Shown piece by piece: positions 1,153 through 53,189 of a DNA stretch of 64,000 bases (the first letter of the stretch is position 1; each line of letters starts with the position of its first letter). The notes below the pieces were generated by a model that was not told where the DNA came from, searched no databases, and worked only from the letters and a program-made list of their open reading frames with translations. The DNA comes from Candidatus Lightella neohaematopini. GTDB taxonomy: Bacteria; Pseudomonadota; Gammaproteobacteria; Enterobacterales; Enterobacteriaceae. The DNA lies in assembly GCA_025728535.1 (NCBI GenBank), contig JAOBJO010000002.1, positions 31,635 to 95,634 of the forward strand, written 5' to 3'. Made by a program: the position numbers and the translations under genes.

Positions 1153-3522
1153 TTATCTTAAACAGGCACCAAATTTCTGTTTTAATTTTAAAAAACATTC
1201 ATTAACAATATTAGATATTTCACTTTCTTTTAAATTACAGTAATAATTTTGTATTTTTATACTAATAGTAATACTTTTATAACCTTTAGAAATGTTACCA
1301 CCTTTGTACACATCAAATATTTTAACATTAATTAATCTAGTATCAATACATTTTTTACATTCTTTAATAATATCAATAGATAATATACTATCTGATACTA
1401 TAATAGATAATTCCCTATAGCTTACTGGATACTTAGATAATAAATTAAATTTTTTATTTTCATTAAATTTATTAATATTATTCCATAATAGTTCAAAAAC
1501 TAATATTTTATTTGGTAAAGATAATTTGTTTTGTATTAATGGATGTATAGTTCCAACTAAACCTATATAAATATTTTTAAAAAAAATATATGCACTTTGT
1601 CCGGGATGTAGTATTTGGTTGTTACAAATTCTAAATTCTATACTATCTACTATACCAATCAAATTAAATATCGATTCTAAATCACCCTTAATATCATAAA
1701 AATCTAATAATCTATTTGATAAGTTCCAACACTTATACGAATAATTACCGTATATTAATCCTGATAACATAAAATATTGTGTAATATAATTATTATTTGT
1801 ACAATTTTCATTATAAGAAAAACAAAATCCTGATTCGAATAAACGAATACATTGTAGTTGCCTATTTTTATTGTAAATTAATGCTTGAATTAATCCTGGT
1901 AACAAAGATAATCTCATAGATGACATATTAGTATTTATCGGATTGGTTAATGTAATTAATTTTTTATTTGGATATAATAAATTTTGTAATTGCTTATCAG
2001 TAAAACTATAACTAATAATTTCTTGGTATCCTCTATCTACCAATAGTATCTTAACACGATCTAATAATGTTAATAACTTATGCTCAGATAATATTATCTG
2101 CTTTTTACTATTTAATGTATTGTTATAAATATTATTAAAGCCATATATACGTATTAATTCTTCAATTAAGTCTTCTTCTTGTAATAAATCACAACGCCAA
2201 CTAGGAGCATAAACACGCCAAGAATATTTATTTTTATTAACTGAACAACCAATATTATTTAGTATATTATCTATATTAGAATCTGATATCTTAACTCCAG
2301 TAACCTTATAAAATTTACTTTTTTTTAACACTATTTGTTTATTTTTTGGTAATAGCCTATCATGGGTTATATTTATAACTGGTCCTGGAACACCACCATA
2401 TATTTTTACTAATAACTCAGTAGTTTTTTCTATAACAACTGTTACTAAACGATAATCTAATTTATTCATGATAATATTAAAATTATTATGTTTAGTAAAT
2501 TTATTAATATAAGTAATACTATCTAAAGTATTAAAGAAAGCACAACCAATAACTATATCAACATTATCATTTGTGTTACTAGATAATTCTAAATAAGATA
2601 ATATTTTTCTATAATTAGAAATTACTATATTCTTAGGTAAGAAATCTAATTTATTATATTTCACATTATCAGTTGATTGTAATTCACGAATTATAATTCC
2701 ATTACTAACAATATTTTTACTAAAAATCATTACTACATAACCTAATTCCAAAAAAATATAATTAATAATATCTAAAATAGAAAATGTTAATTTTATACCT
2801 ACTCTGCGTAATTTTTCTAATAACCATATAGGTAATGGATTATTAATGCTAATATTTTTAATTATTCTTGATAAATAAATTGGACATATACAAGGAACTT
2901 TTATAGTAATTTTAATAATATCTTTTATTTTTGGTGGTATTAATTGATAATAATTAGATAAATTAAACTTAACATTATTAAGTACTAGTATCTCCCTAGC
3001 TAATCCTAGAACGTTATAACAATCAACTCGATTAAACGGAATATTAACATTAATAATATTATCATTTAAATTTAAATATTTCTTTACATCATAACCTATT
3101 GGAGCATTATGTGGTAATATTATAATATTATTACCATATTCACTTATACCTAAGTCTAAAAATGAGCATAAAATACCTTCTGATATTATACCGTTTGTTT
3201 TAATACATGTTATATGTTTATTAGCTAAAGTAGTGGTACCTACTGGAGCAACTACTACTTTAGTATTCAAGTTAACTATTACATTATCTAAAATAATATT
3301 AATAATTTTGTAACCAACATTAATTTTTAGTAAAAATAAGTTATTTAACTTTGATAAATATTTAATTTCTATAATACTACCAATTATTAATCCAGAAATA
3401 TTATTATCTAGTGAATTTATACTATCTATTTCAAATCCTGCTATAGTTAATTTATTAACTAAATAATTTATGTTGATATCTAAATTTACAATTTCGCGTA
3501 ACCAAAATTCACTAAATATCAT
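1153..3522 (-). CDS. pheT: Phenylalanine--tRNA ligase beta subunit
   Basis: 789-aa ORF directly downstream of pheS. The N-terminus MIFSEFWLREIVN matches E. coli PheT MKFSELWLREWVN, and the length is close to the E. coli protein (795 aa). Confidence 0.95.
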   Translation of the reverse strand: MIFSEFWLREIVNLDININYLVNKLTIAGFEIDSINSLDNNISGLIIGSIIEIKYLSKLNNLFLLKINVGYKIINIILDNVIVNLNTKVVVAPVGTTTLANKHITCIKTNGIISEGILCSFLDLGISEYGNNIIILPHNAPIGYDVKKYLNLNDNIINVNIPFNRVDCYNVLGLAREILVLNNVKFNLSNYYQLIPPKIKDIIKITIKVPCICPIYLSRIIKNISINNPLPIWLLEKLRRVGIKLTFSILDIINYIFLELGYVVMIFSKNIVSNGIIIRELQSTDNVKYNKLDFLPKNIVISNYRKILSYLELSSNTNDNVDIVIGCAFFNTLDSITYINKFTKHNNFNIIMNKLDYRLVTVVIEKTTELLVKIYGGVPGPVINITHDRLLPKNKQIVLKKSKFYKVTGVKISDSNIDNILNNIGCSVNKNKYSWRVYAPSWRCDLLQEEDLIEELIRIYGFNNIYNNTLNSKKQIILSEHKLLTLLDRVKILLVDRGYQEIISYSFTDKQLQNLLYPNKKLITLTNPINTNMSSMRLSLLPGLIQALIYNKNRQLQCIRLFESGFCFSYNENCTNNNYITQYFMLSGLIYGNYSYKCWNLSNRLLDFYDIKGDLESIFNLIGIVDSIEFRICNNQILHPGQSAYIFFKNIYIGLVGTIHPLIQNKLSLPNKILVFELLWNNINKFNENKKFNLLSKYPVSYRELSIIVSDSILSIDIIKECKKCIDTRLINVKIFDVYKGGNISKGYKSITISIKIQNYYCNLKESEISNIVNECFLKLKQKFGACLR

Positions 3523-5133: not shown

Positions 5134-5682
5134 TTATGTTTTATCTATATTTTTTTGTGGGGTTAACATAACACTAATTTGTTTACCTTCAATTTTTAAT
5201 AATGAATTATCCATAATTATTAATTTATGTAAATCATTTTTCATACATTTTAGTATATTAATACCAATTTGTTGATGTATAATTTCTCTACCTCTAAATT
5301 TTATAGTTACCTTTACTTTATTACCCTTATTTAGAAATCTAATAATATTACGTAATTTAATATTGTAATCATTTTTTTGTGTATTTGGTCTAAACTTAAT
5401 TTCTTTAACATGTAAAGATTTTTGTTTCTTTTTTTGTTCTTTAATTAATTTACTCTTTTCATATAAAAACTTACCATAATTTATTATTTTACAAATAGGA
5501 GGGATAATATTAGAATTAATTTCTATTAAATCGGCATTTAACTTACTTGCTCTAAGTAAAGCATCTTGTAGGGTAACAATACCAATTTGTTTTGAATCTA
5601 TATTAATTAAACGTACTTTATCTGCTCTTATCTCTTCATTAATTCTGTTTTTAAATTTAATTAATTTTGACCTTATGTTAAT
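5134..5682 (-). CDS. infC: Translation initiation factor IF-3, with a non-canonical ATT start codon
   Basis: Not in the ORF track. Minus-strand translation from the ATT at 5682-5680 gives (M)NIRSKLIKFKNRINEEIRADKVRLINIDSKQIGIVTLQDALLRASKLNADLIEINSNIIPPICKIINYGKFLYEKSK..EIKFRPNTQKNDYNIKLRNIIRFL..FRGREIIHQQIG..TPQKNIDKT, then TAA at 5136-5134. This is colinear with E. coli IF3. An in-frame TAA lies 2 codons upstream of the ATT, and GGGAG lies 10 nt upstream. The length is 549 nt, divisible by 3. Confidence 0.9.
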   Translation of the reverse strand: MNIRSKLIKFKNRINEEIRADKVRLINIDSKQIGIVTLQDALLRASKLNADLIEINSNIIPPICKIINYGKFLYEKSKLIKEQKKKQKSLHVKEIKFRPNTQKNDYNIKLRNIIRFLNKGNKVKVTIKFRGREIIHQQIGINILKCMKNDLHKLIIMDNSLLKIEGKQISVMLTPQKNIDKT

Positions 5683-5706
5683 TTTAGTTTAACTCCCATA
5701 TTAATT

Positions 5707-6942
5707 TTAAATTAAATAATTATTTATTTCGTATTTAATCTTTTCTATAAATTCATTAATACTTACAATGTAAAAATCTTTATTTTTACTAGTCCTAACT
5801 GATAATTTTTTTGAAGATATTTCTTCATTACCGCAAACAATTATGTATGGTATTCTATGAATAATATATTCTCTAATCTTAAAACCCAATTTTTTATTTC
5901 TAGTATCTATTTTAGTTCTTATATCTAATGATATAAGGATTTTCCCAACTTTGTTAACATAATCATATTGATTAATGCTTATATTTGTGATAACTACCTG
6001 TATTGGTGCTAACCATATTGGATAATATCCGGCATATTCTTCTGTAATTATTCCTATAAAACGCTCTATTGATCCTAAAATAGAACGATGTATCATAATT
6101 GGGGTACTACGTGAATTATTTTTATTAATATAAAAAGAATTTAAACGATTCGGAAGAAAAAAGTCTAATTGTATAGTACCACATTGCCAAAATCTTCCTA
6201 ATGAATCTAGTAACACAAATTCTATTTTTGGTCCATAAAAAGCACCATCACCTAATTGATAATCAAAAACTATATTGTTTACTTTTAATGAGTTAATTAA
6301 CTTTTCCTCAGCCCAATTCCAAGTATCATCATCACCAATTCTATACTTTGGTCTAGTTGATAATTTAACTTTAATATTTTTAAAACCAAATATACTATAA
6401 ATATGATATATCATATTTATACAATTATTGATTTCGTTATATATTTGTTCTTCTGTACAAAATATATGTGCATCATCCTGAGTAAAATTACGTATACGCA
6501 TTAATCCATATAAAGATCCAGATGGTTCATTTCTGTGACAACTACCAAATTCTGCTATTCTTAGTGGTAAATTACGATAAGATCTTATTGTTTGATTAAA
6601 TATTTGTATATGTCCAGGACAATTCATTGGTTTAATACAATATTCTCTATTTTCTGAGTTAGTAGTAAATATATGATCTGAATAATTATCCCAATGACCT
6701 GTAACTTTCCATATATTTTTATCCATCATGGATGGGCACTTAACTTCTTGATAACAAAAATTATTTAGTTGTAATCTAATAAATTTTTCTAATTCTTTAA
6801 ATATAACTAAACCATTATTATGCCAAAATATCATTCCTGGTGCTTCTTCTTGTATATGATACAAATCTAGTTGCTTAGCAATTTTTCGATGATCACAAAA
6901 GACATTATTTTTATAGTTATCCTGATACATTAAATTTTTCAA
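5707..6942 (-). CDS. thrS: Threonine--tRNA ligase, catalytic and anticodon-binding domains only (N-terminal TGS and editing domains absent)
   Basis: 411-aa [49 protein letters not shown] and [13 protein letters not shown] align to E. coli ThrRS from about residue 240 to the C-terminus. The ORF-track start is a TTG at 6942 and the first ATG is at 6930. An in-frame TAA lies 2 codons upstream of the TTG. Confidence 0.9.
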
Positions 6943-7131
6943 AATTAATTAATTAAATTATTAAAATTATATTATCTTAACAAGATATCATTCTTGTAAA
7001 AAAACTGCAATATATCTGTATTTAATTTTCTTAAACTAAATATATTAGTTGTAATTTGTCATAAATTGTTAATATACTATACCATTTTGTATAGTATTAA
7101 TTTTAATAAATTAAAATAATTATTTATAATT

Positions 7132-7611
7132 ATGACAGCTGAAGGACATATTTATTTTGCTATATCTAACATAATTTTAATAAAAAAAACTAAGTTGATA
7201 CAATCAATGGCTAATAGTGATTGGTATCATATTATTTTAGGGGGTTTAATAACTTGTTTACTACCAGATATAGATCATCCTAAATCATTTATAGGAAAAA
7301 GACTTAAGTGGTTATCTATACCAATTTATAAAATTTTTGGACATAGAAGTGTTACTCATAGTTTATTATTAATAATTATAATAATAATTTGTATAAATAT
7401 TAAACAAATTAATATTCCCATAGATGTAATCTATGCAATGATTATAGGATATATTAGTCATATAATTGCTGACATATTAACTCCTGCAGGAATTCCTTTA
7501 TTGTGGCCATACAATAAAAAATTTAGTATACCAATAATGAAAAAATCTAATATTAGAATAGAAAGATTAATATCAATAATTATTATTATTTATTCAGTAA
7601 TACTAAATTAG
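7132..7611 (+). CDS. ydjM: Inner-membrane metal-dependent hydrolase, YdjM family (DUF457)
   Basis: MTAEGHIYFAIS..DWYHI..LLPDIDHPKSFIGKRLKWLS..FGHRSVTHSLL..ISHIIADILTPAGIPLLWP closely matches E. coli YdjM (MTAEGHLLFSIA..LLPDIDHPKSFLGQRLKW..FGHRGFTHSLL..LSHILADMLTPAGVPLLWP). Confidence 0.85.
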   Translation: MTAEGHIYFAISNIILIKKTKLIQSMANSDWYHIILGGLITCLLPDIDHPKSFIGKRLKWLSIPIYKIFGHRSVTHSLLLIIIIIICINIKQINIPIDVIYAMIIGYISHIIADILTPAGIPLLWPYNKKFSIPIMKKSNIRIERLISIIIIIYSVILN

Positions 7612-9753: not shown

Positions 9754-11127
9754 ATGAATATAATATTTTCATTACTTAAAGTATTTGTACTTATTATTAT
9801 TTTATTTAATAACATTAATATTTATGCATCGTTTCCATTAACATATATAAATAATTCTAACAATGTTCCTAGTTTATCTTCTATGATTAATAAAGTATTA
9901 CCAGCAGTAGTGAATATGCATATAGAAGGCACACAAATTGTTAGACAGTCAATTTTACCTAAAGAATTTAGGTATTTTTTTGGTCCTAATATACCAAACA
10001 ATAATAGTATCCGTCAATTTGAAGGATTAGGTTCTGGTGTAATTATAGATGCTAATAATGGTTATATTATTACTAATAATCATGTAATACATAACGCAGA
10101 CAAAATTAAAATTCAATTACACGATGGAAGAGAATTTTATGCTAAATTAGTTGGATGTGATGACAAAACTGATTTAGCATTATTAAAAATATCTAATCCA
10201 AGTAATTTAATAGAAATTAAAATAGCTGATTCTGATAATTTAAAAGTTGGTGACTTTGTTATTGCAATTGGTAATCCTTTTGGTTTAGGACAAACCGTAA
10301 CATCAGGAATTGTATCTGCTCTTAGCAGAAGTGGATTAAATTTAGAAGGATTAGAAAATTTTATACAGACTGATGCTTCAATAAATAGAGGAAATTCTGG
10401 TGGTGCTTTAATTAATTTAAATGGTGAATTAGTTGGTATTAATACAGCAATTTTAGCTCCCAATGGAGGTAATATAGGTATTGGATTTGCTATTCCTAGT
10501 AATATAGTAAAAAGTTTAAGTGAACAATTAATTAAGTATGGTGAAATTAGACGGGGTCAATTAGGAATTAAGGGTACAGAATTAACAGCTGATATTGCAA
10601 ATGCTTTACAAATTAATGCTCAACATGGTGCTTTTGTTAGTGAAGTTATGGTGAATTCAGCAGCTTATAAAGCTGGTATTAAGGCAGGGGATATAATTAT
10701 TTCAATTAATGGTAGAAAAATTAAAAGTTTTGCTGAATTAAGAGTAAAAATTAGTATTACTAATCCCGGAGATACTATTACTATTGGCATATTAAGAGAT
10801 AATAAAATCAGTAATATTTCCGTTACATTAGAAGATAGTAATATTAAATATATTAATGATAGTACGGAAGAAATTATTAGTATACCTATTTTACAAGGAG
10901 CTTTATTAAGTAATAATTATAAAGTAAAAGGGGTATTGGTTAATAGTGTTGTTAAAAATTCTCCAGCATTTAGTATTGGTTTACAACAGAATGATATAAT
11001 AGTTGGTGTTAATAAAGAAGATGTTAGTAATATTACACAACTAAAGAAAATTCTAAATAAAAAACTAAATATTATAGTATTCCATATCATTAGGGGAAAA
11101 ACTAATATGTTTTTATTAGTTAACTAA
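9754..11127 (+). CDS. degQ: Periplasmic serine endoprotease, DegQ type (trypsin-like domain plus two PDZ domains, no DegP Q-linker)
   Basis: 457-aa ORF with a signal-like N-terminus. FEGLGSGVII..TNNHV, DLALLKI and GNSGGALINLNGELVGINTAILAP form the catalytic triad context, and the match to E. coli DegQ is almost colinear. The position next to rplM-rpsI matches the E. coli degQ neighbourhood. Confidence 0.92.
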   Translation: MNIIFSLLKVFVLIIILFNNINIYASFPLTYINNSNNVPSLSSMINKVLPAVVNMHIEGTQIVRQSILPKEFRYFFGPNIPNNNSIRQFEGLGSGVIIDANNGYIITNNHVIHNADKIKIQLHDGREFYAKLVGCDDKTDLALLKISNPSNLIEIKIADSDNLKVGDFVIAIGNPFGLGQTVTSGIVSALSRSGLNLEGLENFIQTDASINRGNSGGALINLNGELVGINTAILAPNGGNIGIGFAIPSNIVKSLSEQLIKYGEIRRGQLGIKGTELTADIANALQINAQHGAFVSEVMVNSAAYKAGIKAGDIIISINGRKIKSFAELRVKISITNPGDTITIGILRDNKISNISVTLEDSNIKYINDSTEEIISIPILQGALLSNNYKVKGVLVNSVVKNSPAFSIGLQQNDIIVGVNKEDVSNITQLKKILNKKLNIIVFHIIRGKTNMFLLVN

Positions 11128-14986: not shown

Positions 14987-15711
14987 ATGAGTTTTTTAAT
15001 TATAAAAAATCTTATTAAGAAATATAATAATAAATTAATAATTAATAATATTAATTTAAGCTTTAGTTCAAAAAAAATAATAGGTATACTAGGACCTAAT
15101 GGTTCTGGTAAAACTACTATATTTTATACAATTATTGGTATTATTAAAAATGATTATGGAGATATAATAATTGATAATATTAATATAACTAAATTTTCTA
15201 TACATAAAAGAGTATACTATGGTATTAATTTTTTACCTCAAAAAACTTCCATCTTTCGTAACTTAAGTGTTTTCGATAATATTATGATTGTATTAGAAAA
15301 TAAAAAGTTTTTGTCGTATAAAAAAAAAATGAATTAGTATTATCATTAATGAAAAAATTTAATATAGAACATTTAATTAATAGTATTGGATATACATTAT
15401 CTGGAGGTGAATGTAGGAAAGTAGAAATAGCTCGTGTTATAGCAACTAATCCAAAATTTATATTGTTCGATGAGCCATTTTTAGGTATAGATCCAGTATC
15501 AATATCAAAAATAAAAAGTATTATTAAACAATTAAATAATGATGGTTTAGGGGTAATAATTACTGATCATAATACTAAGGAAATCTTTAATTTATGTGAT
15601 GAATTGTATATCTTATATAAAGGTGAAGTTATAGCTCATGGTACACCTGAAGAAATTAGATCTAACAAGCAAGTAAAATTATTGTATTTAGGAAAAAATT
15701 TTATATGTTAA
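14987..15711 (+). pseudogene. lptB: LPS export ABC transporter ATPase LptB, interrupted by a frameshift inside an A10 run (15320-15329). It is either a pseudogene, a homopolymer sequencing error, or a gene rescued by slippage.
   Basis: Two adjacent ORFs, 14987-15337 (Walker A GPNGSGKTT) and 15349-15711 (LSGGECRKVEIAR, ILFDEPF, ITDHN), together align to the whole of E. coli LptB. A shift of one base in the A run joins ..LSYKKK to NELVLSLMKKFNIEHL.. (E. coli ..ANELMEEFHIEHL..). The joined product is 241 aa. Confidence 0.85.
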
Positions 15712-20274: not shown

Positions 20275-23133
20275 ATGAATAATCATTATAATCCAAAAAA
20301 TATAGAACAATTAATATACAAATATTGGGAAATAAATAATCTATTTCATCCTACTAAAGATAACAGTAAAGAAAATTACTGTATTGTTATACCACCTCCT
20401 AATATTACAGGGAAACTACATATTGGTCATGCTTATCAATATACTTTAATGGATATATTAATTAGATACAATAAAATGCAGGGAAAAAATACTCTATGGC
20501 AAATGGGTACTGATCATGCTGGTATTGCTATGCAAATTACAGCAGAAAAAATATTAAAAAATAAATATAATAAAACTAGGATAAACTATAATCGTAAAGA
20601 TTTTATTAAAGAAGTATGGAAAATAAAGGATAAATTTAGTGATTATATTCATTACCAAATTAAAAGATTAGGTAATTCTGTATATTGGGATAATAATCGT
20701 TTTACTTTAGATAATAATATGTCGTCTTCAGTAAAATTAGCATTCATAAAACTATATAATGATAATCTAATATATAGAGGAAAAAAATTAGTAAATTGGG
20801 ATTTTAAATTACAAACTGCTATTTCTGATCTAGAAGTGACTAATAGAGAATGTATTGGTGATATGTGGTATTTAAGATATCCGTTAGCTAATAATCAATT
20901 TACTATAAATAATTTAAATTATTTAGTTGTAGCTACTACTCGTCCTGAAACAATGTTGGGTGATGTTGCAATTGCTGTTAATCCTAGTGATGATCGTTAT
21001 CAAAATTTAATTGGTAAATATGTTATATTACCAATACTGAATAAACAGTTACCAATTATAGCAGATGAACATATAGATGTTAAAAAAGGTACTGGTTGTG
21101 TAAAAATTACTCCAGCTCATGATTTCAATGATTACCAAATTGGAAAAAAACATAATTTATTAATTATTAATATTTTCTCAAAAAATGGAACTATACTTAA
21201 TAAACCTGAAATAATTAGTAATTATGGAATAATAGATAACAAAAATATTTATAATATACCTTATTATTTACAAGGATTAGATAGATTAGAAGCTCGTAAT
21301 GTTATTTTAGATAAACTAAAAGAATTAAATTTAATTGATAATATCAAACCCCACAAATTAATTATTTCTTATAATATTCGTAATAATGAAATTATTGAAC
21401 CATTATTAACTAATCAATGGTATATGCGAACTAGTAAATTATCAAAATTAGCTATTAATCTTGTTAAAAATGAACATATTAAATTCATTCCAAAATGTTA
21501 TGAAAATTTATATTTTAACTGGATGGAAAATATACAAGATTGGTGTATTTCAAGACAAATATGGTGGGGTCATCGTATTCCGGCTTGGTATGATATTAAA
21601 AATAACATATATGTTGGTAATAATGAACAAGAAATAAGATTATTAAATAACTTAAATAAAGATATTATACTTTATCAAGATAATGATGTATTAGATACAT
21701 GGTTTTCTTCTTCCTTGTGGACTTTTGCTTCTTTAGGATGGCCTAAAAATACTATTCTACTAAAAATGTTTCATCCAACTAATTTAGTAATAAGTGGATT
21801 TGACATAATATTTTTTTGGATTGCTAGAATGATTATGTTAACATCTTATTTAATTAAGGATAATAACTTAATTAATATACCATTTAAAACAGTATATATT
21901 ACCGGATTAATATGTGATGAACATGGACAAAAAATGTCAAAGTCGAAAGGTAATATTATTGACCCTATAGATATAATAGATGGTATACCATTAAAAAATT
22001 TAATTCATACACGTATTAAAGAGATAAATAATTTTACTACAATTAAAAATATTATAAAATGCACTAAAGATAAATTTCCTAATGGAATTAATGCTTGTGG
22101 CGCTGATGCTTTACGTTTTGCTTTAATAGCTATGTCTTCATCACATAGAAATATTAATTATAATATTAATCAAGTATATTGTTACTATAGTTTTTGTAAT
22201 AAATTATGGCAGGTTAGTAGATTTGTTTTATTGAATAGTGAAAATTTTTGTAATTATCAAATGTCATCTTTATCTTTAATAGATAAATGGATATTAATAA
22301 AATTAAATAAAGTAATAAAGAAATTTAAGTATGCATTAGATCATTATAGATTTGATTTAGCTGCTAGTACATTATATTCATTTATATGGTACCAATTTTG
22401 TGATTGGTATATTGAATTAGCAAAAGTTAATATTAAGTATGGTTCACTATTGGAAATTAAGTATACTAAGAATACACTACTATTAGTTTTGAAGCAAATA
22501 CTATTGCTAACTCATCCAATTATTCCATTTATTACGGAGCATATATGGCAATGTATTAGTAAAAAATTTAATAGTGATAAATCTATTATGCTACAACCAT
22601 TTCCAAATTATCAATCGTATAATAATATTAATTATATAGTTAATAGTATTGATTTAATAAAAAATATTATTTATACAATTAGAAAGATGAGATCAGAAAT
22701 AAATATAAATAATAATGCATTAGTAGAAATTATTTTTAGTAATCTTACTGTTGAAGAAGAATTATTAATATTAAATAATGATAAGTATATTAGAAATATA
22801 GCTAAATTAAATTCTATTAATATATTAAAAAATAACAAAAAATTTAATTATATTTGTATTTTTGAAAAGATAAATAATATTCAATTAATGATGCCATTGG
22901 ATAATTTAGATAAAAATCTACTATATATTAGATTAAAAAAGATTAAGACTAATTTAATTAAAATAGAAAAAAAAATATACATATTAGATCAAAAATTATC
23001 TAATAATAAATTTATTAGATATGCACCTAGAACAATTATAAATAATGTAAAAGATAAACTAAAAAAATATAATGAAATGAAACTAACTTTAACACAACAA
23101 CAATTTTCAATATTAGATATAGTAAATAAATAA
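20275..23133 (+). CDS. valS: Valine--tRNA ligase
   Basis: 952-aa ORF with class I HIGH (PPPNITGKLHIGHA) and KMSKS (QKMSKSKGN) motifs and a coiled-coil C-terminus. The length matches E. coli ValRS. Confidence 0.96.
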   Translation: MNNHYNPKNIEQLIYKYWEINNLFHPTKDNSKENYCIVIPPPNITGKLHIGHAYQYTLMDILIRYNKMQGKNTLWQMGTDHAGIAMQITAEKILKNKYNKTRINYNRKDFIKEVWKIKDKFSDYIHYQIKRLGNSVYWDNNRFTLDNNMSSSVKLAFIKLYNDNLIYRGKKLVNWDFKLQTAISDLEVTNRECIGDMWYLRYPLANNQFTINNLNYLVVATTRPETMLGDVAIAVNPSDDRYQNLIGKYVILPILNKQLPIIADEHIDVKKGTGCVKITPAHDFNDYQIGKKHNLLIINIFSKNGTILNKPEIISNYGIIDNKNIYNIPYYLQGLDRLEARNVILDKLKELNLIDNIKPHKLIISYNIRNNEIIEPLLTNQWYMRTSKLSKLAINLVKNEHIKFIPKCYENLYFNWMENIQDWCISRQIWWGHRIPAWYDIKNNIYVGNNEQEIRLLNNLNKDIILYQDNDVLDTWFSSSLWTFASLGWPKNTILLKMFHPTNLVISGFDIIFFWIARMIMLTSYLIKDNNLINIPFKTVYITGLICDEHGQKMSKSKGNIIDPIDIIDGIPLKNLIHTRIKEINNFTTIKNIIKCTKDKFPNGINACGADALRFALIAMSSSHRNINYNINQVYCYYSFCNKLWQVSRFVLLNSENFCNYQMSSLSLIDKWILIKLNKVIKKFKYALDHYRFDLAASTLYSFIWYQFCDWYIELAKVNIKYGSLLEIKYTKNTLLLVLKQILLLTHPIIPFITEHIWQCISKKFNSDKSIMLQPFPNYQSYNNINYIVNSIDLIKNIIYTIRKMRSEININNNALVEIIFSNLTVEEELLILNNDKYIRNIAKLNSINILKNNKKFNYICIFEKINNIQLMMPLDNLDKNLLYIRLKKIKTNLIKIEKKIYILDQKLSNNKFIRYAPRTIINNVKDKLKKYNEMKLTLTQQQFSILDIVNK

Positions 23134-31502: not shown

Positions 31503-33317
31503 CCAATTGTAAATTCTTTTATATATACCTATACTATCTAATCCTAGATTAATATGTATTTGTTTTTGATTACCATGACTAATAAATAAATCTGGTAATC
31601 CTATATTTAATACTTTTACAGATAATTGATTGTACATAATGAATTCGTTAACAGCACTACCAGCACCACCAACAATACTATTTTCTTCAATAGTAACAAA
31701 AATTTTATGATTAAAAGATAATTTTTTAATTAGTGAAGTATCTAATGGTTTTACAAATCTCATATCTACCAAAGTACTGTTAAGTTTATTAGCAACAACT
31801 AACGCAGATTTTAGCAGTGTACCAAAATTTAATATCGCTATATTAACTCCATAACGATGGATTACTCCTTTTCCTAAAGAAATTTTGTGTAATTTGGTTA
31901 TTTTATTTATTCCAGTAACTAATTTTTTTGGGTAACGTACTACGCTAGGGCAGGTTTCATTTTGATAACCAGTATATAACATTAGTCTACATTCATCCTC
32001 ATTACTTGGAGTCATGATAATAATGTTAGGTATACATCGTAAATACGATAAGTCAAATGATCCTTGATGAGTTTTTCCATCAGGTCCTACTATTCCACCA
32101 CGATCAATAACAAATAAAATAGGAATATTTTGCAGTGCTACATCATGAATAATCTGATCATAAGCTCGTTGTAGAAAAGTAGAATAAATAGATACTACTG
32201 GTTTATAACCACCAATTGATAGTCCTACTGCAAAAGTTATAGCGTGTTGTTCAGCAATAGCTACATCAAAAAATTGTTTTGGATATTGGCAGGAGAAATT
32301 ATTCATACCAGATCCATAACTCATAGCAGGAGTAATAGCAACTAATTTACTATCTTTTTTTGCAGTATTACATAACCAATCACCAAAAATACTAGAATAC
32401 GTAATATTATTATTTAATAATAAACTATTATCAGATATACTATATTTAGGTATTGAATGCCAACTAATTGGATCTTGTTCTGCTGGTAGATAACCATAAC
32501 CCTTAATTGTTACCAAATGTAATAATTGTGGTCCAGATTTTAGTTTTAAGATACTTAGTATTTTAATTAATTCTTTTATATTATGGCCATTAATAGGACC
32601 AACATAATTAAATCCTAAATATCGAAACAAATTAATTGTTTTGTCAGTATATATATTTTTTGATATATCAATTATTTGTTTTGTTACTTTGTTTGATTTT
32701 TTTAAAGGATTATATTTTTTAATATTAGATAAGTATTTGTTAAGGGCTCCTGTATTATTAGAAATAGATATACCATTATCATTTAAAATTATTAGTATAT
32801 TTGGTTTAGTATAACCTGTATGGTTAATTGCTTCAAAAGCTATTCCTGCTGTTATTGCCCCATCTCCAATAACACAAACTACATGTCTATTTTTATATTG
32901 TTTTTTCATTGCTATTGCTATTCCAGAACCAACACTAATAGAAGTTGATGAATGACCAACTGTTAGCACATCATATTCACTTTCTTCTCTTGAAGGAAAT
33001 GGATGTAATCCATTAATTTGTCTAATAGTATTCATAAAATTACGTCTATTAGTTATTATTTTATGAGGATAAGTTTGATGACCAGTATCCCAAATTAAGA
33101 AATCTGTAGGAGTGTTATAAACATAATGTAAAGCAATAGTTAATTCTACTACACCAAGACCAGATGCTAAATGACCACTTGATTGATTAACAGTATCTAA
33201 TAAAAATTCTCGTAATTCATAACACATAATATCAAGATCTTGAATTGATAATTTACGTAATTCTATAGGATTATTAATGGTAGTTAATATTTTATATTTA
33301 TTTTTTTTTATTATCAT
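31485..33317 (-). CDS. dxs: 1-deoxy-D-xylulose-5-phosphate synthase
   Basis: 610-aa ORF with [32 protein letters not shown] and the ThDP motif [19 protein letters not shown]. The 3' end overlaps pgpA by 18 nt (convergent). Confidence 0.95.
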
Positions 33318-40595: not shown

Positions 40596-41222
40596 ATGTT
40601 CAATAAGATAATTTCATGTACTAATAAAGTAAGTCATAATAATAACTTAGTTCCTATTGTAGTTGAAAAATTATCATATAGTGAACGAGCGTACGATATA
40701 TTTTCCCGTTTATTAAAAGAAAGAATAATATTTATAACTGGACAGATAGAAGATTATATGGCAAGCACGATAGTTGCCCAAATAATATTTTTAGAAGCAG
40801 AAGATCCTGAAAAAGATATATATTTATATATTAATTCTCCAGGTGGAGTAATTAATGCAGGTATGGCTATTTATGATGTAATACAATTTGTGAAACCAGA
40901 TATTAGTACATTGTGTATAGGCCAAGCAGCTTCTATGGGAGCATTATTATTAATGGCCGGAACTAAAGGTAAAAGATTTTGTTTACCTAATTCTAGAATT
41001 ATGATTCATCAACCAATTGGTGGATTTAATGGCCAAGCATCTGACATAGAAATACAAACAAAAGAAATATTAAATATTAAGGTTAAAATTAATAAATTAA
41101 TATCAAAACATACTAATAAACCTTTTGATAAAATATCTAAAGATACTGAAAGAGATTATTTTTTATCTGCTAATGAAGCATTAGAATATGGTATAATAGA
41201 TTCAATAATAACAAATCGTTAG
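40596..41222 (+). CDS. clpP: ATP-dependent Clp protease proteolytic subunit
   Basis: [46 protein letters not shown] is near-identical in pattern to E. coli ClpP. AAGGA lies upstream of the ATG. Confidence 0.96.
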
Positions 41223-41257
41223 ACTATATTATTTTTTAATATACACGAGAGATATAT

Positions 41258-42493
41258 ATGATAGATAAAGAAAATAATAAATTGAAAAAATTATTATACT
41301 GTTCATTTTGTGGTAAAAGTCAAAAGGAAGTTAAAAAATTAATTGCTGGATCGTCCGTATATATTTGTAATGAATGTATTAACTTATGTAATAAAATAAT
41401 AAATGAAGGGAAAAAAGATAGTGAATATTATAATAATAATCTATCGATTAGTCCTCGTCAAATAAAAAATTGCCTAGATGACTATGTAATTGGACAAGAA
41501 CAGGCAAAAAAGATTTTATCTGTTGCTGTTTGTAATCATTATAAAAGGATTTGCGTAAATAAAAATAATAATGTGAAATTAGGTAAAAGTAATATTTTAC
41601 TAATAGGACCAACTGGTAGTGGTAAAACTCTTCTTGCGGAAACATTAGCAAATTCAGTTAATGTACCATTTGCCATAGCAGATGCTACTACATTAACTGA
41701 AGCTGGTTATGTCGGAGAAGATGTAGAAAATATAATACAAAAATTATTACAAAAATGTGATTTTAACGTCAAAAAAGCACAGAATGGTATAATATATATT
41801 GATGAAATTGATAAAATTTCTAGAAAAATAGATAATCCATCTATTACTAGAGATGTTTCTGGAGAAGGAGTACAGCAAGCTTTATTAAAATTAATAGAAG
41901 GTACTACTGCATTAGTACCTCCAAAAGGAGGAAGAAAACATCCTCAACAAGATTTTATACAAGTAGAAACATCTAATATTTTATTTATTTGTGGTGGAGC
42001 GTTTTCTGGTCTAAAAAATATAATAAAAAGAAGAGTAGAAACTAATTATGGTATTGGATTTTGTGCTAAAATTAAGAATAATAAGGCATCAGATAATAAT
42101 ATTTTATTAAAAACAAAACCAGAAGACTTAATTAAATTTGGATTAATACCAGAATTTGTTGGGCGTTTACCAATTATAGCTGTATTAGAAGAACCAAATG
42201 TAGATATGTTAGTACAGATTCTCTGTAAACCAAAAAATTCATTAGTTAAACAATATCAAACTATTTTTGATTTAGACAATATTAAATTGGAATTTTGTAA
42301 TGAAGCTCTTTTAGCTATTGCTAATAAAGCAGTTAAATATAAAATTGGTGCTAGGGGATTACGTTCTATTATAGAAAACATACTACTAGAAACTATGTAT
42401 AACTTACCGTCAAAAAATATGATAAATAAGATATTAATTAATGAATCAGTAATTAATAAATCATTAGATCCAATATTAATATTTAATAAGTAA
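41258..42493 (+). CDS. clpX: ATP-dependent Clp protease ATP-binding subunit ClpX
   Basis: 411-aa ORF with zinc finger [30 protein letters not shown], Walker [12 protein letters not shown], Walker [10 protein letters not shown] and GARGLRSI. Confidence 0.96.
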
Positions 42494-42609
42494 AAATAAA
42501 AATTTTAATTAGTATAATTTATTTTGTTTAAAATTTTTAATAAATTAGTTAACATTAAAGTTACTTAAATAGATTAATATAATTTATCTTGTTTCCTAAG
42601 AGAGATTAA

Positions 42610-44928
42610 ATGACTAATCATGATGCTACAAATGAAATTGTTCCAGTGCTACCACTAAGAGATATAGTGGTATATCCGAATATAGTAGTACCATTATTTA
42701 TTGGTCGAGAAAAATCTATTAAATGTTTAGAGATGGCTATGAATAAAGATAAACAAATTATGTTGGTTACTCAAAAAGAATCATCTAATGATGATCCTAA
42801 TATTAATGATTTATTTTTAGTAGGTACTGTAGCTTATATATTACAAATGATGAAATTAGCTGATGGAACTATCAAAATACTAGTAAAAGGTCATACTAGA
42901 GCTCACATAAAAAAATTAGAAGATCATGATAATTATTTCGCAGCTGAAATATCATATTTTTCTAATTCAGATGTGTGTAAAAAAGAACATACTACTTTAG
43001 TACGGGTTATTATTAATCAGTTTAATAATTATACAAAATTAAGTAATAAAATTATTCCTGAAGTAATAAAATTGATAAATAATATAGAAGATGCAGATAC
43101 TTTAATTAATACTGTAGCAACTCATATGCCATTAAAAATAATTGATAAACAATTATTATTAGAGATAAACAATATCTCTAAGAGATTAGAAAAATTAGCT
43201 ATTATTATAGAATCAGAAATTAACTTATTAAAATTAGATAGAAGTATACATAATAGAATAAAAAAACAAATTGAAAAAAGTCAAAAGGAATACTATTTAA
43301 ATGAACAAATTAAAGCTATACAAAAAGAACTAGGCGAAATAGATAATATTTCTGATGAATATAATACCTTGTTAAATAAAATAAAATTGTCCAAAATGCC
43401 AAAGATAGCTAAAGATAAAACTAAAAATGAATTATATAAATTAAAAATGATGTCACCGATATCAGCAGAAGCTACTGTTGTAAGAAGTTATATAGATTGG
43501 ATGTTAACAATACCATGGTATAAGCGTAGTAAAATAAAAAAAGATTTACTTAAAGCTAAAAATATTCTAGATAGCTATCATTATGGTTTAGATCAAGTAA
43601 AAGAATGTATATTAGAATATTTAGCTGTACAAAATAGAAGTAATAAATTAAATGGATTAATATTATGTTTAATAGGGCCACCGGGTGTGGGTAAAACTTC
43701 ATTAGGTAAATCAATAGCAAAAGCTACCGGAAGAAAATATATACATATGTCTCTTGGTGGGATGAGAGATGAAGCAGAGATACGTGGTCATCGTAGAACA
43801 TATATTGGATCTATGCCAGGAAAATTAATACAAAAAATTTCCAAGAGTAAAGTCATTAACCCTGTATTTTTATTAGACGAAATTGATAAAATATCATTTG
43901 ATATGAGGGGTGATCCTGCAGCAGCTTTACTAGAAGCATTAGATCCAGAACAAAATAAAACATTTAATGATAATTATTTGGAAGTTGATTATGACTTATC
44001 TAATGTTATGTTTATTGCAACTGCTAATTCTGCTAATATACTACCACCATTACTAGATCGAATGGAAATAATTAGAATTTCTGGATACTCTGAAGAAGAA
44101 AAACTAAATATTGCGAAAAAATATTTAATACCAAAACAAATTAAAAAAAATGCTTTGAAAAATCAGGAATTGTATATAGATGATAATGCAATACTAGATA
44201 TTATTAAATATTATACAAGAGAAGCAGGAGTTCGTAGTTTAGAACGAGAAATATCAAAAATATGTAGAAAAACAGTTAAATTAATATTAATAGATAATAA
44301 TATTAGTAATATTGAAATTAACAATAATAATTTAGGTAATTTTATTGGCATAAAAAAATTTAATTTTAAATACATAAATAACAAAAATGTAATAGGACAA
44401 GTTAATGGATTAGCTTGGACTGATTCTGGTGGTGATTTATTAATTATTGAAACTACTTGTGTATCTGGTAACGGAAAATTAGTTTATACTGGATCTTTAG
44501 GAAAGATTATGCAAGAATCAATAAAAATTGCTCTTACCGTTGTTAGAGCAAATGTTGATAAATTTAGGATAAATCCAATTTTCTATAAAACAACAGATAT
44601 TCATGTACATGTTCCGGAAGGAGCTATACCAAAAGATGGGCCTAGTGCAGGCATAGCTATATGTACCGCTTTAATATCTTCATTATCAAAAAAACCTATT
44701 AAAAATAATATAGCTATGACTGGAGAAATCACATTAAACGGAAACGTGTTACCTATCGGTGGTTTAAAAGAAAAATTACTAGCTGCTCATAGAAGTGGTA
44801 TTGAAACAGTTTTAATACCTTATGGTAACCAACATAATTTAAAAAACATACCAAAAAATGTTTTAAGTAAAATTAGCATAAAGTTAGTTAATTCTATTTA
44901 CGATGTAACTAGTTTGGCGTTAGTATAA
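42610..44928 (+). CDS. lon: Lon protease
   Basis: 772-aa ORF with N-terminal LPLRDIVVYP, Walker A GPPGVGKTS, Walker B FLLDEIDK, and the protease Ser in KDGPSAGIA. Confidence 0.96.
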   Translation: MTNHDATNEIVPVLPLRDIVVYPNIVVPLFIGREKSIKCLEMAMNKDKQIMLVTQKESSNDDPNINDLFLVGTVAYILQMMKLADGTIKILVKGHTRAHIKKLEDHDNYFAAEISYFSNSDVCKKEHTTLVRVIINQFNNYTKLSNKIIPEVIKLINNIEDADTLINTVATHMPLKIIDKQLLLEINNISKRLEKLAIIIESEINLLKLDRSIHNRIKKQIEKSQKEYYLNEQIKAIQKELGEIDNISDEYNTLLNKIKLSKMPKIAKDKTKNELYKLKMMSPISAEATVVRSYIDWMLTIPWYKRSKIKKDLLKAKNILDSYHYGLDQVKECILEYLAVQNRSNKLNGLILCLIGPPGVGKTSLGKSIAKATGRKYIHMSLGGMRDEAEIRGHRRTYIGSMPGKLIQKISKSKVINPVFLLDEIDKISFDMRGDPAAALLEALDPEQNKTFNDNYLEVDYDLSNVMFIATANSANILPPLLDRMEIIRISGYSEEEKLNIAKKYLIPKQIKKNALKNQELYIDDNAILDIIKYYTREAGVRSLEREISKICRKTVKLILIDNNISNIEINNNNLGNFIGIKKFNFKYINNKNVIGQVNGLAWTDSGGDLLIIETTCVSGNGKLVYTGSLGKIMQESIKIALTVVRANVDKFRINPIFYKTTDIHVHVPEGAIPKDGPSAGIAICTALISSLSKKPIKNNIAMTGEITLNGNVLPIGGLKEKLLAAHRSGIETVLIPYGNQHNLKNIPKNVLSKISIKLVNSIYDVTSLALV

Positions 44929-51298: not shown

Positions 51299-51332
51299 TA
51301 AAATAGATTATTTATAAACTTAGGTGATTCAT

Positions 51333-53189
51333 ATGAATAAAAAAGAAGTACGTGGTTTTCAATCGGAAACTAAGCAAATATTAAATATAATGATTAATTC
51401 TTTGTATTCAAATAAAGAGATTTTTTTGCGTGAATTAATATCCAATGCATCAGATGCAATAGATAAACTACGACTTCTTATATTATCTAAACCTGAATTG
51501 TATCAATATGATAGTGATTTTTGTATAATGATTTCCTTTAATAAAAATGATCATTCTATTACTATAGAAGATAATGGTATTGGTATGAGTTATGATGAAG
51601 TAATACACAACCTAGGAACAATTGCTAAATCTGGAACAAAAGAATTTATTAAATTAAAAGAGTTTGAAAATAAATTGAATAGTAATCTTATTGGTCACTT
51701 CGGTGTTGGGTTTTATTCATCATTTATTGTGGCTAGTAAAGTTATTGTACACACTAAATCATTTAATGATAGTAATGGTGTGTTATGGGAATCTGATGGT
51801 AAAGATAAGTATACTATTAATTACTTAGATAAATCTAGTCACGGTACTAAAGTTATACTATACCTAAAAAATAATGAGGAAGAATTTCTTGATTATTGGA
51901 AATTAAAAAATATTATAAATAAGTATTCTGATCATATTCAATTACCGATTAAATTACAAAGTAATAATAAAGATGGTAGTATTTGGAAACAAATTAATCA
52001 GGCTAAAGCTATATGGACTCGCAATAAATTAGACATTAAAGATGATGAATATATAGAATTTTATAAACATATTACTGGTGATCATAATGATCCATTATAT
52101 TGGCAACATAGTTTTATTGAAGGTAAACAAGAATATACTATGTTGTTATATATTCCTAGTAAGTTTATACATAGTCCTTGGCATAATGAGAAAAAAACTG
52201 GTTTAAAATTATACGTTAATCGTGTATTTATTATGGATAATGTTAATAGTTTTTTACCAAACTATTTACGTTTTGTAAGAGGAATTATAGACTCTAATGA
52301 TTTGCCACTTAATGTATCTCGTGAAATTTTACAAGAAAATAAAATAATTAATAAAATAAAAAGTAATATTACAAAAAAAATACTTAATATGTTAGAAAAA
52401 TTATCGCAGACTGATGAAAGTAAGTATAAAATTTTTTGGAGACAGTTTGGATTAATTTTTAAAGAAGGTTTAGCTGAAGATTTTAAAAATAAGAAGTTAC
52501 TATCTAATTTATTAAGATTTGCACATACAGATGGTAAAGATCAGTATGATTATATATCATTAAATGCATATATTAATTATATGAAAAAAGAACAAAATAA
52601 AATATATTATATTGTTGCTAGTAGTTACAATTCAGCTAAATATAGTCCACATATAGAGATCTTAAAGAAAAATAATGTTATAGTATTATTACTATTTGAT
52701 GCAGTTGATGAATGGATGATTAATTGTATTAATGATTTTAATGGTAAAAAGTTTCATTTATCTAGTAAAGAAGATGATTTGATAAATCAATATGCTAATG
52801 ATGAAAATAGAATACATCTAACAGATACGATTGAATCTTCAAATCACCTTCTTTATCGAATAAAGAATTATTTAGGTGATAAAATAGTTGATGTTAAATT
52901 TACAAAAAAATTAGTTACATCCCCAGTAGCATTAATAAATGAAGATAATAGTATGACTACTCAAATGGCTAAATTATTAAAGAATAGTGGTCAGTCAGTA
53001 CCAAAAATAAAATATATTTTATTAGTTAATTACAAACATAAAATAATTAATAAAATATCTTATATAAAGGAAGACAGTAAATTTAATCAATGGATCGAGT
53101 TGTTATTTAATCAAGCATTATTAATGGAAAGTAACTATTTAGATAATCCCGGAATATTTATTAAGATTATTAATCAATTATTAATTTAA
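51333..53189 (+). CDS. htpG: Chaperone HtpG (Hsp90)
   Basis: MNKKEVRGFQSETKQILNIMINSLYSNKEIFLRELISNASDAIDKLR matches the E. coli HtpG N-terminus. I use the ATG at 51333, 6 nt after AGGTGA; the ORF-track start at 51324 is a GTG. Confidence 0.95.
   Translation: MNKKEVRGFQSETKQILNIMINSLYSNKEIFLRELISNASDAIDKLRLLILSKPELYQYDSDFCIMISFNKNDHSITIEDNGIGMSYDEVIHNLGTIAKSGTKEFIKLKEFENKLNSNLIGHFGVGFYSSFIVASKVIVHTKSFNDSNGVLWESDGKDKYTINYLDKSSHGTKVILYLKNNEEEFLDYWKLKNIINKYSDHIQLPIKLQSNNKDGSIWKQINQAKAIWTRNKLDIKDDEYIEFYKHITGDHNDPLYWQHSFIEGKQEYTMLLYIPSKFIHSPWHNEKKTGLKLYVNRVFIMDNVNSFLPNYLRFVRGIIDSNDLPLNVSREILQENKIINKIKSNITKKILNMLEKLSQTDESKYKIFWRQFGLIFKEGLAEDFKNKKLLSNLLRFAHTDGKDQYDYISLNAYINYMKKEQNKIYYIVASSYNSAKYSPHIEILKKNNVIVLLLFDAVDEWMINCINDFNGKKFHLSSKEDDLINQYANDENRIHLTDTIESSNHLLYRIKNYLGDKIVDVKFTKKLVTSPVALINEDNSMTTQMAKLLKNSGQSVPKIKYILLVNYKHKIINKISYIKEDSKFNQWIELLFNQALLMESNYLDNPGIFIKIINQLLI

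Follow-up and report, generated by a model that had tools for sequence, protein, structure and literature searches.

This analysis indicated that thrS, the gene of threonyl-tRNA synthetase (ThrRS) in a 64,000-nucleotide stretch of the genome of Candidatus (Ca.) Lightella neohaematopini (positions 31,635 to 95,634 of contig JAOBJO010000002.1, assembly GCA_025728535.1; hereafter the window), very probably encodes a working minimalist enzyme, which consists of a catalytic core and an anticodon-binding domain, lacks post-transfer editing and arose by deletion. Lightella lives as an obligate endosymbiont in the sucking lice of chipmunks, and its draft genomes measure about 462-464 kb (PMC9376444). 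It is host-restricted, and its genome is reduced (about 463 kb, with a guanine-cytosine (GC) content of 22%, and 16-28% within the window). In host-restricted bacteria, loss or degeneration of editing by aminoacyl-tRNA synthetases is an established pattern, according to reviews of the work concerned (Li 2011; Melnikov 2018).

The thrS gene and its product

The gene and its elements were located as follows.

5707-6930, minus strand: thrS coding sequence from the conserved ATG start, 407 amino acids plus stop
5707-6942, minus strand: thrS open reading frame (ORF) from a TTG start, 411 amino acids, the extent given by the ORF finder and by NCBI
6034-6669, minus strand: class II catalytic core (Pfam tRNA-synt_2b, amino acids 92-303, E = 3.5e-58)
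5734-6000, minus strand: anticodon-binding domain (Pfam HGTP_anticodon, amino acids 315-403, E = 1.7e-17)
6619-6621, 6466-6468 and 6088-6090, minus strand: codons of the zinc ligands C108, H159 and H285 (Lightella numbering)
6895-6930, minus strand: N-terminal leader of 12 residues, without ThrRS homology, in the place of the N1-N2 domains and the linker helix
6949-6951, minus strand: in-frame TAA, which closes the frame 5' of thrS in all strains

Judged by its sequence, the Lightella protein is unambiguously a ThrRS. The 411-residue product is 100% identical to the annotated threonine--tRNA ligase of Ca. Lightella neohaematopini, and it scored 536 bits against TIGR00418 (the NCBIfam equivalog for thrS, cut-off 383.65), with coverage of profile positions 164-564 only, out of 565. 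The original prediction, made from the sequence alone, had stated that the TGS and editing regions are missing, and this was borne out: a Pfam scan of the product for TGS and tRNA_SAD domains found neither, and pairwise alignment with ThrRS of Escherichia coli K-12 (642 amino acids, taken from NC_000913) showed true homology from D243 through residue 634, with 63% identity. This start is close to the residue 240 that had been proposed, and comparison with the PDB aligned the protein to residues 241-634 of the full-length E. coli enzyme (1qf6_A). The canonical bacterial architecture, with a TGS domain (PF02824) and a tRNA_SAD/N2 domain (PF07973) carrying the H73, H77 and C182 site, is absent from Lightella ThrRS, which has the minimalist make-up of a catalytic core and an anticodon-binding domain alone.

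What is left of the enzyme is well preserved, in line with the earlier view that the zinc site and the anticodon-binding domain are intact. The zinc ligands C334, H385 and H511 (E. coli numbering) are kept, as are D383, R363, Q381, Y462, K465, Q479, Q484 and R520, which include the motif 2 and motif 3 arginines, and all of the anticodon-contact residues that were checked (N575, K577, R583, E600 and R609). The core is 63-67% identical to those of Enterobacterales, and it keeps about 204 of the 229 near-invariant columns, defined as at least 97% invariant among 110 full-length enterobacterial ThrRS cores.

The start codon was assessed by comparing the window strain with five Lightella assemblies (L207, L217, L218, L220 and L222) from the species-representative genome collection. 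The predicted length of 411 amino acids holds for the ORF from TTG, but this codon is not conserved, being TTT or TTA in the other strains, whereas the ATG at 6930-6928, four codons downstream, is invariant in all six. For this reason the real product is most likely a protein of 407 amino acids that starts at this ATG and carries 12 non-homologous residues ahead of D243. The TAA at 6951-6949 was found where it had been announced, two codons upstream of the first possible start: two sense codons separate it from the TTG, and it lies three codons 5' of the TTG and seven codons 5' of the ATG.

The same truncation was indeed found in all strains. In the five other assemblies, the ThrRS match begins at query residue 1-4 with a stop 2-4 codons upstream in each, and the frame is unbroken in the six. 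Their proteins are 89-90% identical to that of the window strain, and the ratio of nonsynonymous to synonymous substitution rates (dN/dS, Nei-Gojobori) is 0.04-0.13 between strains, with dS up to about 0.5. The neighbourhood in L220 is also the same (serC, ydjM, then thrS-infC-rpmI-rplT-pheS-pheT-sufB). By contrast, 17 unrelated bacteria, including small-genome lineages of the candidate phyla radiation, all have 109-262 residues upstream of the core. On this comparative evidence, the shared truncation, the low dN/dS and the kept core columns rule out misassembly, and they render it very unlikely that thrS is a pseudogene in decay.

Misassembly had been named beforehand as a finding that would overturn the prediction, and an assembly or annotation artefact, in which a full-length thrS had been broken, could be thought of in genomes that are metagenome-assembled drafts (PMC9376444). 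It was not seen: an identical junction (ydjM, a spacer of about 190-200 bp, stop, ATG, core) occurs in six independent assemblies with 91% identity in the spacer, and thrS sits in the interior of contigs of 52-157 kb, which leaves this explanation next to no credit. A decaying pseudogene, with the host or a co-symbiont charging tRNA-Thr, would fit the 'Missing' status given by BUSCO to threonine--tRNA ligase in the L207 draft (PMC9376444, supplementary Table 4) and the Neisseriaceae contigs that are also present in some louse samples (PMC9376444). However, purifying selection across lineages at dS values up to 0.5, a frame intact in six assemblies and the conservation of every catalytic residue leave it a very slim chance. 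BUSCO is moreover unreliable here, and its verdict was rejected as proof of ThrRS absence: valS, serS and pheT are likewise 'Missing' in L207, yet they are full length in the window strain. The low BUSCO completeness of Lightella is partly a matter of divergence and truncation, not of absence.

Origin of the truncation in Lightella and in other symbionts

The genes and the spacer that flank the truncated thrS are the following.

6931-7131, no strand: AT-rich thrS/ydjM spacer, 189 bp from the TTG or 201 bp from the ATG
7132-7611, plus strand: ydjM (Pfam YdjM, E = 1.2e-32), the divergent neighbour, which would mark the far end of the deletion
5134-5682, minus strand: infC (IF3_N and IF3_C), directly downstream of thrS

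Gene order offers a simple account of the loss. On the minus strand of E. coli, pheT-pheS-pheM-rplT-rpmI-infC-thrS is followed by eight dispensable loci (arpB, yniD, ydiY, pfkB, ydiZ, yniA, yniB and hxpB), then by ydjM on the plus strand. The order and orientations in Lightella match this arrangement, the thrS-infC-rpmI-rplT-pheST operon order being kept, and the spacer up to the divergent ydjM, whose length of 189 bp was as predicted, replaces about 7.6 kb together with the first 680 nt or so of thrS. Because gene order is collinear with that of E. coli, the simplest explanation is a single contiguous deletion, or stepwise erosion, that would have reached into the 5' third of thrS. Such a deletion would have taken out the non-essential genes that separated thrS from ydjM, would have run into the first 230 or so codons of thrS, and would have left translation to start from a new ATG that precedes the catalytic core by 12 codons. 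With this model, the 5' part of thrS need not have moved elsewhere.

As regards the spacer itself, a promoter scan returned 7 sites for 4.7 expected, which is uninformative in DNA of 12% GC. An RNA element similar to the thrS operator of E. coli was considered in the leader and rejected, as an Rfam scan of the window gave no match near thrS and the 151-nt leader folded no better than shuffled sequences (z = -1.55).

The loss is not restricted to Lightella. Homologues were searched among 1.84 billion cluster representatives, and the best 150 clusters at 50% identity were considered: about 16 of these 150 contain a ThrRS of about 400-430 amino acids that starts just ahead of the DHR motif. One of them (P0122, 410 amino acids, 61% identity) belongs to Ca. 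Providencia siddallii, an obligate symbiont of Haementeria leeches. On the 755-kb chromosome of this symbiont (OZ034688.1), thrS again lies next to a divergent ydjM, and the spacer between them measures 1041 bp, with 8% GC. This spacer (L029, 4960-6039) gave collinear, same-strand tblastn matches to the ThrRS N-domain, residues ~30-132 mapping to 5414-5749 and residues 166-245 to 5818-6039, where the match enters the present ORF; the best score, 29.6 bits, exceeded anything seen in 200 shuffles, whose highest value was 20.8. The P. siddallii spacer is an intermediate stage of the same N-domain loss. In a third AT-rich symbiont (Logan SRR27234917; L001, 4840-7293, about 26% GC), a ThrRS of 430 amino acids is encoded behind a gene-free spacer of 1161 bp and 12% GC, in which no N-domain remnant was detected; the upstream neighbour there is a SIS-domain gene and not ydjM.

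Alignment with thrS of related endosymbionts, as had been suggested, thus showed the same truncation in five Lightella strains and truncated enzymes in P. siddallii and in the Logan symbiont. The latter two share with Lightella ThrRS its architecture, its start just before DHR and the thrS-infC-rpmI-rplT-pheST context, and differ in that they have kept spacers of about 1 kb and of extreme AT content. The truncations in the three lineages look independent on sequence grounds, because their N-terminal leaders are unrelated and the cores of P. siddallii and of the Logan symbiont, 61-67% identical to that of Lightella, are no closer to it than those of free-living Enterobacterales. We read the three cases as stages of one path, on which the 5' part is first inactivated while translation re-initiates at the domain boundary, and that part then decays where it lies and is finally deleted. 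P. siddallii with its recognisable remnant, the Logan symbiont with a featureless AT-rich spacer and Lightella with a clean deletion seem to stand for successive stages. A broader idea, which we hold to be rather doubtful, is that loss of the whole N1-N2 region is an end-state reached repeatedly and convergently by nutritional animal symbionts, whose enzymes would compensate in fidelity or whose proteomes would be 'statistical' for threonine and serine. If it were true, these symbionts would form a natural test system for how much synthetase proofreading a cell needs.

Convergent or compensating remodelling of the active site was considered and found unsupported: G248, L587 and V606 are the only positions altered in all three truncated lineages, and they lie outside the active-site residues checked.

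Other short or altered ThrRS were noted among the homologues. Enzymes of about 400-420 amino acids that start before DHR also occur in metagenome bacteria of normal GC content (P0134, P0168, P0180, P0194, P0197 and others), one such cluster having 18 members on contigs of up to 705 kb. A 429-residue representative (P0005), whose start, MLQRIYGTAW, falls within the N2 domain of what is an ordinary enterobacterial sequence, was set aside as probably a gene-call fragment and not a truncated enzyme. Full-length ThrRS of insect symbionts (P0016, P0062, P0101 and P0105; Mikella, Ecksteinia and others) carry substitutions in the N2 editing motifs, RHSCAHLLGHA becoming RNSC.. or RYSC.. (H73N, H73Y) and DMCRGPHV becoming DICNGPQV or DMCLVQPHV. 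We take the substituted positions, such as H73, to be editing-site residues, and the sequence changes are consistent with a decay of editing ahead of domain loss.

Fidelity of the minimalist enzyme

The functional reading is based on the conserved residues and on published work with the N-terminally truncated (delta-N) ThrRS of E. coli and the mitochondrial ThrRS of yeast. The E. coli delta-N enzyme (residues 242-642; PDB 1EVK, 1EVL, 1FYF, 1KOG and many inhibitor complexes) is one of the two closest parallels, Lightella residues 17-408 aligning almost end to end with it (positions 2-393 of 1evk_A), and the Lightella and delta-N proteins share domain content, zinc site and class II motifs. They differ in that delta-N is a laboratory construct from a cell that keeps the full-length enzyme, whereas the Lightella form is natural, conserved and apparently the only ThrRS, with a new leader of 12 residues in the place of the linker. 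Yeast mitochondrial MST1 (PDB 3UGQ, 3UH0 and 4YYE; match to Lightella residues 21-402, E = 4.7e-83) similarly consists of the core and the anticodon-binding domain only, and serves a reduced, host-dependent genetic system (PMC4267643). By contrast with the typical enterobacterial core of Lightella, MST1 is of independent origin, nucleus-encoded and imported. Crenarchaeal ThrRS-cat also lacks an editing domain in cis (PMC4267643; match to Aeropyrum ThrRS-1, 3A31, E = 3.7e-50), but there a separate ThrRS-ed gene takes charge of editing, with no such partner in the portion of Lightella that was searched; the archaeal editing domain is moreover unrelated in fold to bacterial N2.

From a mechanistic point of view, the dimeric core should still activate threonine at the zinc site and charge tRNA-Thr, by analogy with these enzymes and given the conserved residues. 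Bacterial ThrRS whose editing domain has been deleted indeed retains full activation activity with less efficient charging, and the E. coli enzyme stays a dimer without its N-terminal region (PMC4267643). Bacterial ThrRS clears Ser-tRNA-Thr mainly via post-transfer editing by N2, and the yeast mitochondrial enzyme, which has no editing domain and no post-transfer editing, uses pre-transfer hydrolysis of Ser-AMP instead (PMC4267643). Such hydrolysis in the active site, shown for MST1 (PMC4267643) and extended to Lightella by analogy, would be the remaining proofreading, and without N2 no Ser-tRNA-Thr would be hydrolysed after transfer. As to the substrate itself, the zinc site reportedly excludes valine and rejects serine only about a thousand-fold, and delta-N is said to make Ser-tRNA-Thr, in the work of Dock-Bregeon and colleagues (2000). 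Because delta-N does so, a low level of serine at threonine codons is to be expected in Lightella. It would probably be tolerated, the substitution being conservative and selection being weak in a tiny, vertically inherited population, and misfolded products could be cleared by chaperones and proteases whose genes lie in the window (clpP, lon, htpG and a DegQ/DegP-type protease). In E. coli, growth suffers little from editing-site mutants of ThrRS or from the oxidised enzyme as long as heat-shock proteases are present (PMC10057733).

The truncation may have a regulatory consequence as well. Translational autoregulation of thrS in E. coli requires the N-terminal domain, and this control was presumably lost together with the domain in Lightella.

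A minimalist yet accurate enzyme, in which pre-transfer editing or a tighter discrimination between threonine and serine in the active site keeps mistranslation from rising, was weighed in this context. Strong purifying selection on the core would be in keeping with it. We nevertheless regard it as unlikely, as no convergent or Lightella-specific change was seen at the zinc-binding or threonine-binding residues, the three shared changes (G248, L587 and V606) are not among the active-site residues checked, and the yeast enzyme still makes Ser-tRNA-Thr that it cannot edit post-transfer (PMC4267643).

The possibility of editing in trans, which the original prediction had offered beside tolerated mistranslation, was also addressed. 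Searches for N1-N2 modules and trans-editing factors covered the 64-kb window, related loci and genes 1-230 of L207 (published BLAST table). The tblastn search that had been proposed for the complete genome was run with the N-termini of eight ThrRS from enterobacteria and symbionts as queries, on the six-frame translation of the window and of the Lightella loci; neither this search nor a profile hidden Markov model built from 110 N-termini, applied to six frames of the window and related loci, gave a match better than E = 0.35. In the L207 table, JDEFPCLO_00224 matches ThrRS over subject residues 243-634 only and no second ThrRS match was found among genes 1-230; no match description with 'editing' or 'YbaK' was found in the supplementary tables examined, and no YbaK, AlaX or DTD-type domain in the small window ORFs that were scanned. 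Lightella thrS is the only ThrRS gene seen, and it appears to encode the sole ThrRS. An N1-N2 module, or another Ser-tRNA-Thr deacylase (ProXp-ST/YbaK-family or AlaX-like), located elsewhere in the genome would have a precedent in the free-standing ThrRS editing proteins of Sulfolobus (PMC4267643). This explanation, and the split gene that the original prediction had named as a refutation, are weakened by these negative results and by the collinearity of the thrS region with E. coli, for which a simple deletion suffices. In addition, the N-terminal coding part decayed in place in P. siddallii and did not move, and a genome of about 463 kb with a decayed editing pocket in its phenylalanyl-tRNA synthetase (PheRS; see below) is unlikely to keep a dedicated trans-editor. 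We consider editing in trans quite improbable.

Some points weigh against a minimalist enzyme that arose by deletion and works without post-transfer editing. The searches above covered roughly half of the Lightella genome, and in comparison with Puchtella, the nearest relative, this genome is strongly rearranged (PMC9376444), which makes relocation of a fragment possible in principle. The spacer, with 91% identity among the six strains, is more conserved than the synonymous sites of thrS, at which the window strain differs from the others by 31-37%; it may hide divergent promoters or a regulatory element. Finally, charging, serine misacylation and mistranslation are inferred for Lightella from sequence and analogy, and a subtle gain in discrimination between threonine and serine is possible despite the lack of any compensating change seen in the active site.

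Other synthetases, neighbouring genes and significance

Further genes of the window that bear on translation quality, and one split gene, are listed below.

1153-3522, minus strand: pheT (PheRS beta, 789 amino acids, full length), with a degenerate B3/B4 editing pocket
20275-23133, plus strand: valS (952 amino acids, full length), with the CP1 motifs TRPET and K..TPAHD..DY kept in comparison with Thermus thermophilus valyl-tRNA synthetase (ValRS)
9754-11127, 40596-44928 and 51324-53189: quality-control genes (DegQ/DegP-type protease, clpP, lon, htpG)
14987-15711, plus strand: probable lptB, split into two ORFs

Compared with E. coli, PheRS beta shows H265M, the loss of the GGIFGGEH segment, E334G, T354N and A356F. 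These positions are presumably part of the editing pocket. The substitutions suggest a second loss of proofreading, this time without deletion of a domain. In L207, alaS, leuS and ileS have full-length coordinates. Because the CP1 motifs of ValRS are conserved, editing loss would seem to be selective in Lightella, with at least two synthetases relaxed, ThrRS by deletion and PheRS by substitution. As for the quality-control genes, their retention is relevant to the tolerance of mistranslated proteins; an ORF of 411 amino acids lies next to clpP in the position of clpX and is probably ClpX.

Two side observations concern other genes. The 5' end of infC has no ATG, GTG or TTG, and its probable start is an ATT at 5682-5680, 25 nt past the thrS stop. 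This is reminiscent of E. coli infC, which starts with AUU. The probable lptB, an ABC ATPase gene that adjoins an LptA-like gene, is split into ORFs of 116 and 120 amino acids in different frames, with the two halves of ABC_tran at 1-80 and 90-136 and the break at a run of ten A (15321-15330); this is a pseudogene, or else slippage on poly(A) rescues the frameshift.

The original prediction overstated how unusual such an enzyme is, since editing loss is established in host-restricted bacteria, a minimalist ThrRS works in yeast mitochondria and about 16 of the best 150 clusters have a similar length. Mycoplasma LeuRS, PheRS and ThrRS are editing-deficient (Li 2011, as reviewed). In the cases covered by the reviews, point mutations or deletions lie within editing domains, mainly in Mollicutes, whereas in Lightella, a gammaproteobacterial insect symbiont, the entire N1 and N2 domains of ThrRS are gone. 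Lightella ThrRS may thus be grouped by analogy with the yeast mitochondrial and delta-N enzymes in function, and with the editing losses of host-restricted bacteria in evolution. In the genome paper on Lightella, thrS goes unmentioned (PMC9376444), a full-text search found no paper that names both thrS and P. siddallii, and no description of a ThrRS without editing domain from an insect or leech symbiont was found in the literature, in which Li 2011 and Melnikov 2018 were known through reviews. The main addition of this work is that the loss recurs in three lineages of symbionts, among which intermediate stages can be seen.

These results offer perspectives for annotation and for the study of translation fidelity. 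The truncation accounts for the 'missing' ThrRS in the output of completeness tools on these genomes, and the label 'threonine--tRNA ligase' masks a lost function. ThrRS editing is a standard example of a second sieve that guards against a near-cognate amino acid, and its complete natural loss was previously characterised mainly in yeast mitochondria; three apparently independent natural cases are now available for comparison, and the Lightella system could be used to quantify how much threonine-to-serine error a reduced proteome tolerates.

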